Source of the DNA: Promethearchaeota archaeon
GTDB taxonomy: Archaea; Asgardarchaeota; Lokiarchaeia; Sigyniarchaeales; SOKP01
Length of the DNA: 46,551 nucleotides
Assembly (NCBI GenBank): GCA_048941265.1
Contig: JBHLNT010000011.1
Span: 1-46,551 of the forward strand
Reading direction: 5' to 3'
Positions 10,913-27,422 of the stretch are shown here, piece by piece (positions within the stretch are counted from its first letter, which is position 1; every line of letters starts with the position of its first letter). The translations under genes and the position numbers were made by a program. Below the pieces are notes generated by a model. It was not told the DNA's origin. It searched no databases and worked only from the letters and a program-made list of their open reading frames with translations.

Positions 10913-12388
10913 ATGAATTTAAATAGGATAGACGAAAACATCTATGAGATAAAACCTAAGGCATTAATGGTAAGAGTTCACGGTGAGATTAAAAAGTTTC
11001 AGATGCGTGTTCCTGCTCATATTTATGCGAATGAATATATTTTAGGGAGGATTCAACAAGATAGAACTTTGGAGCAAATTAGTAATGTTGCTTGTTTACC
11101 TGGAATTGAAAAGCATGCAATTGCTCTTTCAGATGCTCATCAAGGCTATGGTTTTTGCATTGGTGGTGTAGCTGGAACCGATGCCAACTCTGGAATGATA
11201 TCTCCCGGAGGAGTGGGTTATGATATCAACTGTGGAGTTAGGCTTCTTCGCACTAATTTGTTTTTAAAAGAGATACAACAAATACTCCCAGATTTATTAA
11301 ATTCTATCTTTAGAAATATCCCTTCTGGATTAGGATCCAAAGGTAAATTAAATATAAATTATTCTGATTTAGATAATGTTTTAAATAATGGTTTAAATTG
11401 GGCGTTAGAAAAAGGTTATGCCATCGAAGAGGACTTAACCCATTGCGAAGAAAATGGTTGTTTGAAAAATGCAGATGCAAGTTTAGTATCCGAAAAAGCA
11501 AAACAGAGAGCGATCAAACAGCTAGGTTCTTTAGGGAGTGGAAATCATTTTCTTGAAATTCAGAAGATCGATGAGATTTTTAATAAAGATATTGCAAATA
11601 AATTAGGATTTTACGATACAAATCAAATAACAGTCATGGTACATACTGGTAGCAGAGCTTTAGGACATCAAGTATGTACGGATTCATTACGAAATATTGA
11701 ACGAGCTATGAAGAAATATAATATCGAAGTACCTGATAGAGAATTGGCATGTGTACCAGCTGATACACCAGAAGCACAAAATTATTTAAATCAAATGGCT
11801 TGTGCTGCTAATTTTGGATTTAATAATCGACAATTAATAACTCATTGGATTAGAGAATCTTTTCAAAAATTCTTCAATAAAAAAGATTTTGATGAATTGG
11901 ATTTACATTTAATTTATGGTGTTTGCCACAATATATTAAAAATTGAGGAACATGTGGTCGATGGCAAAAAAATGAAATTAAATGTTCATAGAAAGGGTGC
12001 TACTAGAGCGTTCCCACCTGGCCATTCAGAGATTCCCCGGGACTATAAAGATATAGGACAGCCAGCCTTAATTCCGGGAACAATGGGTTCTGCTTCTTAT
12101 ATATGCGTTGGAAAACCGAAAGCTATGGATTTATCATTTGGTTCAACTGCTCATGGATCTGGAAGATTAATGTCTCGTTCTAAGGCTAAAAAGAGATATT
12201 GGGGAGAACAAATCAAACAAGATTTAAGTCAAAAAGGGATCCTTATAAAAGCTGCTTCAATGCAAGTAATTGCCGAAGAAGCTCCAGGAGCGTATAAAGA
12301 TATTGATCAAGTAGTAAATGTTAGTCATGACCTTGGAATTGTAGAAAAGGTTGTTAGACTAGTGCCTGTAGGTGTTGTTAAAGGATAA
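10913..12388 (+). CDS. rtcB: tRNA-splicing ligase RtcB
   Basis: DAHQGYG, GYDINCG, GSGNHFLE, HTGSR, HRKGAT, STAHGSGR, EEAPGAYK. Confidence 0.97.
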   Translation: MNLNRIDENIYEIKPKALMVRVHGEIKKFQMRVPAHIYANEYILGRIQQDRTLEQISNVACLPGIEKHAIALSDAHQGYGFCIGGVAGTDANSGMISPGGVGYDINCGVRLLRTNLFLKEIQQILPDLLNSIFRNIPSGLGSKGKLNINYSDLDNVLNNGLNWALEKGYAIEEDLTHCEENGCLKNADASLVSEKAKQRAIKQLGSLGSGNHFLEIQKIDEIFNKDIANKLGFYDTNQITVMVHTGSRALGHQVCTDSLRNIERAMKKYNIEVPDRELACVPADTPEAQNYLNQMACAANFGFNNRQLITHWIRESFQKFFNKKDFDELDLHLIYGVCHNILKIEEHVVDGKKMKLNVHRKGATRAFPPGHSEIPRDYKDIGQPALIPGTMGSASYICVGKPKAMDLSFGSTAHGSGRLMSRSKAKKRYWGEQIKQDLSQKGILIKAASMQVIAEEAPGAYKDIDQVVNVSHDLGIVEKVVRLVPVGVVKG

Positions 12389-22131: not shown

Positions 22132-23493
22132 TTAGATAAATCTATTACTTAAAACAGGAGAGCCGACCCTCTGATGCATTCTTCTGCCTGTTTTTCGAAA
22201 TATACCGGGTTTACTTTCTTCAGTTATTAAAGTTAAGGATTCGACCATAGTAAGAAGGTCATCTAAATCGTCAATATAATCTTGATCATTTTCAGCTCTA
22301 ATTATTTGTTCTGATAAATTTTCCAGTTCTGATCTATTTTTTTCTAAAATTTCAATTCTTTTAGCCTTCTTATCATAAACCATTTGACCTCCACCCCAAG
22401 GAGAATTATTCTGTTGATAAAGATATGTAGTAATATCTGGAGCATAAGGAAATGGATAAGTCCAGCAAGAAGCATGGGCCCATAAAATTTGTCCAGGTCT
22501 ATGATCTGCGATCTCAACAATAAGCTCATCTGAATTAATATCATTAAGATCATAAGCAACAATCAACCCTTTAGTGTTTATATCAACCTCGTCCCAGATT
22601 TTAAAGGGTTTTTTCAAGATTTCGGAAGCTGCCATTGCCAAAATTTGGCTGGAACGGTCTGGTAAGGATATTATACACGGAATCTTTATTTTAACTGCGT
22701 CCAATACACTTTTTAATCTTTCAATTCCATAATGACATAAGGAATACGAATCAGAGATATAAGCATAGCGCCCATACATGCCTTCATTTATACCATAAGG
22801 AGAAAGATGCAGCAGTATTGAACCATTAAGCACTATATGCCATCCCCGTAAATCCGTATGATCTAATGAGCGGGAATTTTTCAAAGTTAATGCTCTGTCA
22901 ATCATTCCTTTTAGTGATTTTGCCATAAATTGAATATCTTTATCTTGACTCTCTTGAATTGTTATTAAAAGTCTCTTGGTTTCATCAATGTTGCCTGTCA
23001 TTATTTTATTAAATCCTAATAAATACCTGCAAAATTCACTGGTTTCAAGTAATTCTTTCGCTCCAGATAATAGATCACAAGCATCTTGATTCAACATCAT
23101 AAATTCTAAATTCACAACCAGTTCAGAGATGATTTTTTCATCATAAGGTTTTATTTTATTTGCTCTTGATAAAAACGTAGCTGCAATGCTATGAGCACTT
23201 TCTTCGTATAATTCGTAAGCAAGATCGTATAAAGTATCAGGATCATTCGGATTTTCACGAATTTTTTTCACCAGATCCCCCCACTCATCACCAATTAATT
23301 CTCGAGTAATTTTTTCAAATAATTCAATTACATCATCCCATACAACTTCAAGGTAAAAATAACCAGGATAATCCAGAATTTCTCTAATATTGGAATATGC
23401 CTCTTGTAAATTTTGATTTTTCAGATTTTTTAAAAAAGTTTGTCTGATTTGCTTATATTCCTCTGGAAAATTTATTTTATTCTCTTTAGACAT
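22132..23493 (-). CDS. Hypothetical protein with N-terminal TPR-like helices
   Basis: 453 aa ORF; PNDPDTLYDLAYEL TPR-like pattern; alpha/beta C-terminal part. Confidence 0.65.
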   Translation of the reverse strand: MSKENKINFPEEYKQIRQTFLKNLKNQNLQEAYSNIREILDYPGYFYLEVVWDDVIELFEKITRELIGDEWGDLVKKIRENPNDPDTLYDLAYELYEESAHSIAATFLSRANKIKPYDEKIISELVVNLEFMMLNQDACDLLSGAKELLETSEFCRYLLGFNKIMTGNIDETKRLLITIQESQDKDIQFMAKSLKGMIDRALTLKNSRSLDHTDLRGWHIVLNGSILLHLSPYGINEGMYGRYAYISDSYSLCHYGIERLKSVLDAVKIKIPCIISLPDRSSQILAMAASEILKKPFKIWDEVDINTKGLIVAYDLNDINSDELIVEIADHRPGQILWAHASCWTYPFPYAPDITTYLYQQNNSPWGGGQMVYDKKAKRIEILEKNRSELENLSEQIIRAENDQDYIDDLDDLLTMVESLTLITEESKPGIFRKTGRRMHQRVGSPVLSNRFI

Positions 23494-23624
23494 TTCTATC
23501 TACTTATATTTTCAAATCACATTAAGCATTAAATTTTTTCAATTTTTATAGTAAAGATTTGTTCATTTAAAATGTTAGCAATTAATTTAGTAATATTGAA
23601 TTAGAAAAATTGGAGAATAAAGAA

Positions 23625-23804
23625 TGCAGGAGGTGGGATTTTCATGGAAATCCATCGAAATGATGGCCAACAATTTGAACCCACGAAGGACTATTCCACT
23701 CTCTCTAAGAGAGAAATACTCTCTTTGGCTAGAGCCTCAGTCTAGCGCCGGTAGTCGCATATTCGATCTGAAAAAATGGCTAGACCGTACTTGGCTACCC
23801 CTGC
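23625..23804 (-). tRNA. tRNA-Leu(GAG) with three BHB introns (23751-23780, 23699-23728, 23639-23673)
   Basis: Acceptor GCAGGGG/CTCCTGC, anticodon arm CTAGA-CTGAGGC-TCTAG, V arm GGA-ATAG-TCC, T arm GTGGG-TTCAAAT-CCCAC. Removing 30+30+35 nt gives an 85-nt cloverleaf. Confidence 0.9.
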
Positions 23805-23967
23805 GTTAAAATTTAGTACTTAATAATTGTTTTAATCTATTAAAATAGTTAAAATTTTAAATTTTTTATTAAAAGTTTTTTTAACATATTAAATGAATTA
23901 TTGAAATTTTAAATCTTTTATTCTTTATTATCTTATAACATAGAAATAATTATTTTTACGATGAATT

Positions 23968-24762
23968 ATGTCAAAATTAGATACAATTATCTTAGAAATT
24001 GAAGAATCTGAAAATTATGCGATAATTTATTTAAATCGGCCTGAACAATTAAATGCATTAAATTTTCAATTAGCAGAAGATTTTAATTCTGCATTGGAAT
24101 TGCTCTCTAAAAAAGAAACTATCCGATGTGTAGTTATCACGGGAAAGGGTAATGCGTTTTGCGCTGGAGGCGATTTAGGTGCGTTTAAAAAGGCAGAACA
24201 CCCCGATTCTTTTTTATTTGATTTGGCAACAATTTTCCATAAAGGGATAAAATTATTAAAAACCATAAATGCACCATCAATCGCAGCTATAAATGGTGCT
24301 TGTTTCGGAGTTGGACTTAGTCTAGCATGCGCTTGCGATTTAAGAATATGTTCTGAAAAAGCTAAATTTGGTGTTGCTTTTACGAGTGTTGGGCTTTCTC
24401 CAGATTCCTCACTAACCTTTCATTTACCTAAGATTGTTGGGTTGCCGATGGCTAATGAAATGGCAATTTTGAATAGAATTTTGGATGCTGAAGAAGCAAT
24501 TAAATATGGGTTAGTATCAAAAGTTGTCTCTGAAGAATCAATGATAAAAGAAGTGAAAGAAATGGTAAAAAAAATTAGTCATGGACCTACAATGGCATAT
24601 GGGAGCACAAGAAAATTATTTACAATGTCATTTTCTAATGATTTAGAATCTCAATTAAATGAGGAAATAACAAATATCAAAAAAAACGCAGCTTCAGAAG
24701 ATTTCCAAGAAGGAGTTAGTTCATTCTTAGAAAAAAGAAAGCCAAATTTCAAGGGAAGATAA
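23968..24762 (+). CDS. Enoyl-CoA hydratase/isomerase (PaaG-like)
   Basis: LNRPEQLNALN, AFCAGGDL, AAINGACFGVG, GLSPD, FLEKRKPNFKG. Confidence 0.92.
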   Translation: MSKLDTIILEIEESENYAIIYLNRPEQLNALNFQLAEDFNSALELLSKKETIRCVVITGKGNAFCAGGDLGAFKKAEHPDSFLFDLATIFHKGIKLLKTINAPSIAAINGACFGVGLSLACACDLRICSEKAKFGVAFTSVGLSPDSSLTFHLPKIVGLPMANEMAILNRILDAEEAIKYGLVSKVVSEESMIKEVKEMVKKISHGPTMAYGSTRKLFTMSFSNDLESQLNEEITNIKKNAASEDFQEGVSSFLEKRKPNFKGR

Positions 24763-24984: not shown

Positions 24985-26001
24985 GTGAGTGTTGATAGAA
25001 AAAGATTAGAGGCTTTATTGAAATGGTATAAGCAAGAAGTCAGTAAGGATTTAATTGCAGCGATTATTGTAAATAGAGAAGGTTTAGTAATGGAAGCGAT
25101 CTCTGGAACTTCGGATGATAAATCAATTGATGAAGAAATTGTAGGGGGTGTGAGCGCTTTGGTTGAGCCTGTACTCAATAGAATCACAAAAGAATTCAGT
25201 TCGGGAGCTTTTGGAACGGGAACATTTGATACCGAAGATTATCGATTAATATTTTGTGAAGCTGGACCAGAATCAATTTTTGTTACAGTATTAGATAGTA
25301 TGGGTATGGTTGATCCCGTTTTTCCATATGCTTATTTGGCAGCAGAAAAAATTGCGAGAATTTTTGATGGTCGCACTGTCAGTCCTGTTATTCCTAAAAT
25401 TATTACTGAAAGAGCTGCGGCTCAAATTGAACGAAAAATAGATAAAATCCAAAAACTTAAAATTAAATCAGGAGAATATGCTTTTAAATTAATCTTAGGC
25501 GGGGACGGAGCCGTTGGTAAGACAAGTATGGTACATCGTTTTGTAGAGGATGTGTTTGATGTAGATTATAAATCAACAATTGGAACTTCAATAATGAAAA
25601 AAGAATGTACTTTTGAGGGATTAGAGTCAAAAGTTCGATTTGTCATATGGGATTTAGCAGGTCAGGCTCAATTCAAAAGGGTAAGGCAATCTTATGTTGC
25701 TAATGCAGAGGCAGGAATTTTAGTATTTGATGTGACAAGAAAAGATACTTTTGAGAATGTGAAGCTTTGGTATGATGAAACAGTAAAAGAAGCACCAGAT
25801 ATTACTTTAATTTTAGTGGGTAATAAGATTGACCTAACCGATTCAAGACAAGTTTCAAAAGAAGAAGGGGAGGCTTTGGCCAATAAATTAGGATTAAGCT
25901 ATATAGAGACATCAGCAAAAACAGGTGAGAACATAGAAGACGCCTTTCAAATGCTCGCTTTACAAATAATAAAAATCTATGTTGAAGCTGTAGAAGTATA
26001 G
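24985..26001 (+). CDS. Roadblock/LC7 domain fused to Rab-like small GTPase
   Basis: N-terminal AAIIVNREGL roadblock pattern; GDGAVGKTS, YKSTIG, WDLAGQ, NKID, ETSAK. Confidence 0.9.
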   Translation: MSVDRKRLEALLKWYKQEVSKDLIAAIIVNREGLVMEAISGTSDDKSIDEEIVGGVSALVEPVLNRITKEFSSGAFGTGTFDTEDYRLIFCEAGPESIFVTVLDSMGMVDPVFPYAYLAAEKIARIFDGRTVSPVIPKIITERAAAQIERKIDKIQKLKIKSGEYAFKLILGGDGAVGKTSMVHRFVEDVFDVDYKSTIGTSIMKKECTFEGLESKVRFVIWDLAGQAQFKRVRQSYVANAEAGILVFDVTRKDTFENVKLWYDETVKEAPDITLILVGNKIDLTDSRQVSKEEGEALANKLGLSYIETSAKTGENIEDAFQMLALQIIKIYVEAVEV

Positions 26002-26103
26002 AGCCTCTGGGGGGATTTGAACCCCCGACCGAATCATCTAATCGAATGCTTTACTCGATCAATTGATTACGAATCAATCGCTCTACCACTAAGCCACAGA
26101 GGC
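26002..26103 (-). tRNA. tRNA-Thr(CGT) with ~30-31 nt intron at the anticodon stem/variable loop junction (~26031-26061)
   Basis: GCCTCTG/CAGAGGC acceptor, U discriminator, ATTGA-TTCGTAA-TCAAT, GGGGG-TTCAAAT-CCCCC; insert has ATCA/TGAT helix and an ATCGA/TCGAT hairpin. Confidence 0.9.
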
Positions 26104-27316: not shown

Positions 27317-27422
27317 GGGCCATTAGCGCAGGCAGGTAGCGCAGCAGGCTTTTAACCTGAAGGTCGTGGGTTCGATACAAACTAGGAAATTCTCCTATTT
27401 TGCGAGAATCCCACATGGCCCG
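27317..27422 (+). tRNA. tRNA-Lys(TTT) with 32-nt T-loop BHB intron (27377-27408)
   Basis: GGGCCAT/ATGGCCC acceptor, CAGG-CTTTTAA-CCTG; TTCG/CGAG central helix with ATA and AAT bulges, inner TAGGA/TCCTA stem. Confidence 0.92.

Follow-up and report, generated by a model that had tools for sequence, protein, structure and literature searches.

In the accessible part of Valentin-Alvarado et al. 2024 (PMC11291895), introns are reported in 92–95% of the tRNA genes of three Asgard genomes, with over half of the genes carrying several. A more recent preprint (Goswami et al. 2026, 10.64898/2026.10.13.758758) describes, in its accessible sections, up to five intervening sequences per Asgard tRNA gene, repeated intron gains, D-arm inserts that are often missed by tRNAscan-SE, and two paralogs of the splicing endonuclease EndA in 44 of 60 genomes; by the same account, the splicing of these inserts is so far without experimental proof. 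The bulge-helix-bulge motif at which such introns are cut comes in strict and relaxed (hBH, HBh′) forms, the relaxed ones being tied to archaea with heterotetrameric endonucleases (PMC4090602, accessible part), and Asgard archaea are described as having an (αβ)2 EndA with an L1 loop (PMC5829648, accessible part). A three-intron gene is on record from Pyrobaculum islandicum, whose tRNA-Pro(UGG) is interrupted at 25/26, 37/38, and 56/57 (Sugahara 2007, as cited in the accessible part of PMC4090602). A first-pass annotation of the DNA studied here held that triple-intron tRNAs are described mainly from Thermoproteales; given the multi-intron tRNA genes already published for Asgard archaea (PMC11291895; 10.64898/2026.10.13.758758, accessible parts of both), this framing is outdated.

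Here, we analyzed a stretch of 46,551 nt (hereafter, the window) from the draft genome of a Promethearchaeota archaeon (G000). The host is an Asgard archaeon, an assignment supported, among other evidence, by a Ras-family GTPase gene next door to the locus of interest. We are highly confident that the window contains a functional, single-copy tRNA-Leu(GAG) gene with three introns that would be processed by EndA and RtcB. The gene is a well-documented example of an element type already described for Asgard archaea—and leaves knowledge of the mechanism unchanged.

Architecture of the tRNA-Leu(GAG) gene

The gene occupies 180 nt of the minus strand (Table 1); it opens with the 5′ strand of a tRNA acceptor stem and closes with the complement of that strand plus an A. 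Its extent coincides exactly with the interval proposed in the first-pass annotation, to which our analysis adds the strand. Introns account for 95 of the 180 nt, in line with the earlier estimate of more than half of the gene. Exons have a GC content of 56.5%, introns of 37–40%, and both the window and the genome of about 30%. Exon 1 matched the uninterrupted ortholog in L004 as one contiguous block at 100% identity, and a 21-mer within exon 2 found exact matches in 15 public genome records. A split or permuted tRNA gene was rejected on the grounds that the four exons are colinear, and group I or group II introns on the grounds that the inserts measure only 30–35 nt.

Removal of all three inserts in silico yielded an 85-nt sequence that ARAGORN called as tRNA-Leu(gag) with a perfect class II cloverleaf. 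This product has an acceptor stem of 7 bp (one G·T), anticodon and T stems of 5 bp each, an anticodon loop of 7 nt in which GAG occupies positions 34–36, a long variable arm, and A73. The last two features are the leucine identity elements of archaea. When none, one, or two of the introns were removed, ARAGORN returned either no call or a wrong one. Numbered according to the ARAGORN cloverleaf of the spliced product, the introns lie at 21/22, 43/44, and 59/60, and none of the three uses the canonical 37/38 site.

Standard scanners overlooked the gene, as had been anticipated. ARAGORN without introns reported 0 tRNA genes in the window, and the Rfam tRNA model at its gathering score retrieved only the gene at 26002–26103 from the window and not the three-intron gene. 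Even at E ≤ 10, an Rfam search of 23400–24050 produced nothing tRNA-like; weak matches to CRISPR-DR63, MIR824, and sR11 in this interval all fell far below threshold and were dismissed as chance. With introns allowed, ARAGORN assigned wrong anticodons to partly spliced forms and to candidates from our structural scan; the gene studied here, for instance, came out as SeC(tca), Leu(cag), or Leu(caa). With two standard scanners blind to the gene, automatic annotation would list this tRNA as missing. The gene is another clear case of under-called Asgard tRNA sets.

The host assembly is a fragmented draft (361 contigs, 91% complete, 4.8% contamination), and apparent inserts might in principle stem from a chimeric contig or misjoined reads introduced during assembly or binning. 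We assign this a practically negligible probability: 23495–23897 is covered by one contig of 403 nt that comes from another sample and differs at one position, small overlapping contigs from a different study tile 23450–23953 with no differences, and among the contigs of other samples that cover the locus there was no form without the inserts. Moreover, near-identical interrupted genes are found in two related genomes, G007 and G003. The one difference in the other-sample contig, T>A at 23726 (plus strand), turns the sole A·A mismatch of the intron 2 inner helix into a U–A pair in the RNA.

Table 1 Coordinates of the three-intron tRNA-Leu(GAG) gene, its window neighbors, and related genes elsewhere. 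Positions without a contig name refer to the window.
Feature	Position	Strand	Length	Gene coordinates	Content
tRNA-Leu(GAG) gene	23625..23804	−	180 nt		5′ end at 23804; discriminator A at 23625
Exon 1	23781..23804	−	24 nt	1–24	Acceptor 5′ strand, U8/A9, D-stem 5′ strand, D loop through position 21
Intron 1	23751..23780	−	30 nt	25–54	21/22, D loop/D stem junction
Exon 2	23729..23750	−	22 nt	55–76	D-stem 3′ strand, position 26, anticodon stem-loop with anticodon GAG
Intron 2	23699..23728	−	30 nt	77–106	Site 43/44
Exon 3	23674..23698	−	25 nt	107–131	Long variable arm, T-stem 5′ strand, T loop positions 54–59
Intron 3	23639..23673	−	35 nt	132–166	T loop 59/60
Exon 4	23625..23638	−	14 nt	167–180	T loop position 60, T-stem 3′ strand, acceptor 3′ strand, discriminator A73; CCA not encoded
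RtcB (tRNA ligase)	11075–12385	+	493 aa		569 bits
ORF	22132–23493	−	453 aa		Adjoins the tRNA-Leu(GAG) gene
ORF	23968–24762	+			Enoyl-CoA hydratase; other flank of the tRNA-Leu(GAG) gene
ORF	24985–26001	+	338 aa		Ras/Roc/Arf-type small GTPase domain, residues 168–329
tRNA gene	26002–26103	−	102 nt		Rfam 64 bits; ARAGORN with introns: Thr(cgt)
tRNA gene with T-loop insert	27317–27422	+	106 nt		32-nt insert at a 59/60-type site
Ortholog in G003 (L003)	G003:C225, 1435–1617	+			33-nt insert with its own 4/4 central helix (two G·U)
Long tRNA-like gene	C196:2092–2272	−			
Long tRNA-like gene	C212:20439–20606	−			
Long tRNA-like gene	C212:3549–3708	−			

Exon borders, splice motifs, and predicted folding

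We set the exon borders without using any splicing motif, by comparison with the uninterrupted ortholog of G008, a genome of the same genus. This gene, which ARAGORN calls directly as Leu(gag), is identical to the predicted spliced product at 85 of 85 positions. The comparison allows a single register for intron 1, three for intron 2, and five for intron 3, and the sole register with a 4/4 central helix at each border is the one proposed in the first-pass annotation. There, a 4-bp exon–intron helix separates two 3-nt bulges, one on each strand, and the predicted cut follows the second nucleotide of the bulge; all three inserts are bulge-helix-bulge elements by this definition. The helices named earlier (GGTC/GACT, CTCT/AGAG, and TTCA/TGAA) were all present at the 30-, 30-, and 35-nt inserts, and cutting in the suggested way recreates a normal tRNA-Leu(gag) that is identical to a natural uninterrupted gene. 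Ortholog and motifs also support the sites to which these non-canonical introns had been assigned (D loop, 43/44, and 59/60).

Intron 3 has the strict hBHBh′ form with both outer helices: its central helix TTCA/TGAA is bordered by the bulges AA^T and AA^T (^, cut), the 5-bp T stem serves as h (4/4 scored), and h′ begins with two pairs. Introns 1 and 2 fit the relaxed HBh′ form as set out in the accessible part of PMC4090602. In intron 1, GGTC/GACT comprises one G·T and three Watson–Crick pairs between the bulges TA^G and AC^C (h 1/4, h′ 3/4); in intron 2, the four Watson–Crick pairs of CTCT/AGAG lie between AG^C and AG^T (h 0/4, h′ 3/4). The outer exon helix is absent from intron 2, whose inner hairpin reads AAGAGAG/CTCTCTT, and the inner helices of introns 1 and 2 contain one mismatch each.

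As a background, we counted 4/4 helices over all 6468 start × length combinations in the gene sequence and obtained 176 (2.7%), or 49 (0.76%) when a 3-of-4 flanking helix was demanded in addition. Once the one, three, and five permitted registers are taken into account, 4/4 helices would turn up by chance at all three borders in about 3 of 10,000 cases. Because the borders were set by the ortholog independently of the motif, and the proposed register alone gives 4/4, the inserts are more than chance.

The predicted minimum-free-energy fold of the precursor (−58.7 kcal/mol) includes the acceptor and T stems together with the intron 3 motif, the only one of the three motifs to form in it. In the predicted ensemble, the central helices at introns 1 and 2 are practically never paired (probability about 0), and forcing the motifs costs +6.2 kcal/mol for intron 1, +4.7 kcal/mol for intron 2, and +13.1 kcal/mol for all three together. 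Neither of the first two motifs becomes more favorable in any partly spliced intermediate, which means that folding does not yield an order of intron removal. What dominates the fold is a competing helix of 9 bp that the D-loop region forms with the 5′ strand of the anticodon stem (23738–23746 with 23779–23787; gene positions 59–67 with 18–26); its exon part, GGTCTA/TAGACT, is also present in uninterrupted orthologs. The folding models weaken the case for spontaneous formation of the motifs, but not for their existence at the borders.

Relaxed motifs in introns 1 and 2 that free-energy folding does not favor would also be compatible with a gene copy that is disabled or decaying, its inserts being inactivating junk. 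Leu(GAG) would then either be supplied by an uninterrupted copy—conceivable in the missing part of an assembly that is 91% complete—or its codons would be read by another leucine tRNA. We consider this very unlikely, since the exons are identical to an intact ortholog over their full 85 nt and each of the three inserts coincides exactly with a bulge-helix-bulge register. Likewise, no other Leu(GAG) copy turned up: when the 91%-complete assembly was searched with the spliced 85-mer, the four exons were the only match, and the uninterrupted gene elsewhere that the first-pass annotation had named as the alternative source of this tRNA was not found. The three-intron gene appears to be the only CUU/CUC decoder in the assembly; across the 27 ORFs of 200 aa or more in the window, 239 of 10472 codons are CUU or CUC.

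Variation of the gene across Asgard relatives

To follow the gene across relatives, we searched 40 related genomes at the DNA level and then mapped the exons, aligning the 85-mer with long inserts allowed to 32 loci, which places borders to within a few nucleotides. Loci L013–L016 and L020 (66–71 of 85 positions identical; probably other tRNAs or partial) were dropped, three uninterrupted thaumarchaeal genes (L027, L029, and L032) were set aside, and six duplicates of G genomes (L021, L024, L030, L031, L034, and L035) were merged, leaving 18 Asgard genomes. Across this set, the Leu(GAG) gene has 0 to 3 introns at about seven sites. Three introns are present in G000, G007, and G003; two in G017, G002, G005, L022, L023, and L033; one in G001, G019, G022, G015, L025, L026, and L028; and none in G008 and G025. 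The T loop site 59/60 is occupied in 11 of the 18 genomes, 21/22 in six, other D-loop sites in four, the anticodon stem or loop in three, and the variable arm in one. Inserts at 43/44 are confined to three of the 18—the genomes with three introns.

A single genus thus holds both the 0-intron and the 3-intron state, with identical mature tRNA sequence. Relative to the compact G008 gene, the inserts of 30, 30, and 35 nt each exceed or equal 10 nt, so that the gene counts as multi-intron (at least two introns). G007 carries the same three introns; its 11 differences from G000 comprise nine in the 95 intron nt and two in the 85 exon nt, the latter both in loops, and no central helix is broken. Per site, changes between these two genomes are about four times as frequent in introns as in exons. 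G003 keeps introns 2 and 3 and is a close relative with the first intron swapped: its D-arm intron is absent, and a 33-nt insert resides in the anticodon-stem 5′ strand instead (Table 1). Its D-loop exon reads GGCC where G000 has GGTC. Intron 1 is absent from the orthologs of G008 and G025 as well. The lower changeability of exon sites, together with a three-intron layout kept in G007 and two of the introns kept in G003, further argues against a disabled copy and for a gene under use.

In other genera, introns at the same site have unrelated sequences and keep the pairing, both at 21/22 and at 59/60. At 21/22, the intron strand of the central helix is GACT, GGTC, or GATT opposite the exon GGTC, and the inner helices differ from one another (GAGC/GCTC, GCTT/AAGC, and GCTT/AGGC), all being fully paired. 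At 59/60, TTCA/TGAA is replaced by TTCG/CGAA, a double change. Some orthologous motifs are weaker, with 3/4 pairs at 59/60 in G019, G017, and L033, and no good motif was seen at the aligner-derived borders of G015, G001, and L022.

This pattern bears on a further reading, in which the RNA would keep the inserts as expansion segments, making it an unusual and long tRNA-like molecule. Such retention strikes us as extremely unlikely: insert sequences vary freely while the splice motifs are kept, congeners have the same mature sequence without any insert, and the inserts break the D loop/stem junction, the anticodon-stem base, and the T loop—precisely the parts that must form the tertiary core of a tRNA.

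The locus is syntenic, with homologous ORFs on both sides in G008 (amino acid identity 67% left, 71% right), G003 (83% and 78%), and G001 (79% and 82%). The same locus and mature sequence with 0, 1, 2, or 3 introns provides a well-controlled case for intron gain and loss, and should also help in studying which substrates the Asgard splicing endonuclease accepts. Within G000, the three introns have no other copies, the best match beyond themselves being ≤ 16 nt (lowest E 0.068), and show no likeness among themselves. Intron 2 is made up almost entirely of (AG)n and (CT)n, in stretches mirroring the CTCTAG at the edge of the exon. Given this local-repeat make-up, its restriction to the three closest genomes, and the lack of another genome copy, the locus may represent a time series of intron turnover in which intron 2 arose de novo, by hairpin formation or slippage, and was not transposed. 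We regard this scenario as speculative and rather improbable; if true, the arrival of bulge-helix-bulge introns becomes directly testable at this locus.

Genomic setting, processing enzymes, and known systems

Rfam recovered only 22 tRNAs from G000, many of about 100 nt. A GC-island census gave 3129 islands, too many for a combinatorial intron search, and we instead used a structural scan (7-bp acceptor helix, 5-bp T stem, TTCRA, U8, GC-rich stems). This way, we obtained 42 candidates, about 39 of them tRNA-like: six measured 72–75 nt, 19 tRNA-like ones formed the largest group at 98–108 nt, 12 fell between 118 and 137 nt, and four, including the three-intron Leu(GAG) gene, between 160 and 181 nt. 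A T-loop insert was present in 15 tRNA-like candidates (29–35 nt in 13 of them, 24 and 64 nt in the other two), and for five genes removal of this insert alone led to a full ARAGORN call. Since ARAGORN with introns gives wrong anticodons, its isotype labels for the candidates were left unused unless T-loop insert removal alone resulted in an intron-free call. With T-loop inserts and long genes throughout the genome, the three-intron gene is one of the most heavily interrupted cases of a general tendency rather than an oddity. With the roughly 39 other tRNA-like genes mostly interrupted too, interruption is the normal state here, which again speaks against the view of a disabled copy and in favor of a working gene.

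The three remaining members of the longest class, one on C196 and two on C212 (Table 1), probably harbor at least three inserts each. In the window itself, a third tRNA gene, at 27317–27422, escaped both ARAGORN and Rfam on the raw sequence, and removal of its insert alone led to a full ARAGORN call of tRNA-Lys(ttt). At 102 nt, the tRNA gene at 26002–26103 has at least one intron; it begins one base past the stop of the Ras-GTPase ORF. The protein encoded by this ORF has an N-terminal half of about 165 aa without an assigned domain and is an Asgard-style eukaryotic signature protein. For the ORF at 22132–23493, which shares 67–83% amino acid identity with its counterparts in G003, G001, and G008, no Pfam family was found at E ≤ 0.001.

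As to processing, G000 encodes two EndA paralogs, each with PF01974 and PF02778. The 201-aa paralog is closest to the PDB chains 3p1z_B, 3ajv_B, and 2cv8_A (E 1e-34 to 1e-37) and also matches 2zyz_B, all of which we take to be catalytic α subunits of crenarchaeal heterotetramers. Its alignment runs gap-free across the stretch around Lys44 of 3p1z_B—presumably within the loop that confers broad specificity—with K-P-R kept, and it retains the His that is Ala in 3ajv. The 198-aa paralog is 31% identical to the 201-aa one, has Phe in place of Tyr and no aligned His, and, as expected, would fit a structural β subunit. Judged by sequence likeness, which also underlies the presumed substrate range, the endonuclease is probably of the two-subunit, broad-specificity type. 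The genome's only RtcB match lies in the same window, about 11 kb from the three-intron gene. The host thus encodes both a splicing endonuclease and an RtcB ligase.

With these components, transcription of the minus strand would produce a precursor of about 180 nt in which every intron, together with the exon beside it, would form a bulge-helix-bulge motif. An (αβ)2 EndA would cut both bulges of each motif, RtcB would join the exons, and a CCA-adding enzyme would finish the 85-nt class II tRNA, predicted to read CUU and CUC.

Compared with known systems, the gene resembles one eukaryotic nuclear gene in having three ectopic introns, one per arm region; that gene, however, is matured by the Sen complex of eukaryotes and is evolutionarily unrelated to the locus described here. 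With the three-intron genes of Thermoproteales it shares the number of introns per gene and the mix of strict bulge-helix-bulge and relaxed HBh′ motifs (PMC4090602, accessible part), as well as an (αβ)2 EndA with an extra loop (PMC5829648, accessible part). It differs from them in phylum, in having no intron at 37/38, and in that its introns are without another copy in the genome, whereas related introns recur across Thermoproteales tRNA genes (10.64898/2026.10.13.758758, accessible sections).

The closest likeness is to the published Asgard multi-intron genes (PMC11291895; 10.64898/2026.10.13.758758), which, in the accessible parts of these sources, come from the same host group and contain several short, non-canonical inserts per gene. 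Further shared traits are D-arm inserts missed by annotators, common T-arm sites, a two-paralog EndA, and gains that look repeated and lineage-specific. Unlike the present case, both sources center in those parts on Atabeyarchaeia and Freyr-/Jordiarchaeaceae, and the main text of the preprint, so far as accessible, contains 0 occurrences of Lokiarchaeia or Promethearchaeia. Relative to the Asgard cases described there, this locus differs in combining 0- and 3-intron states at one syntenic position, within a single genus and with identical mature sequence.
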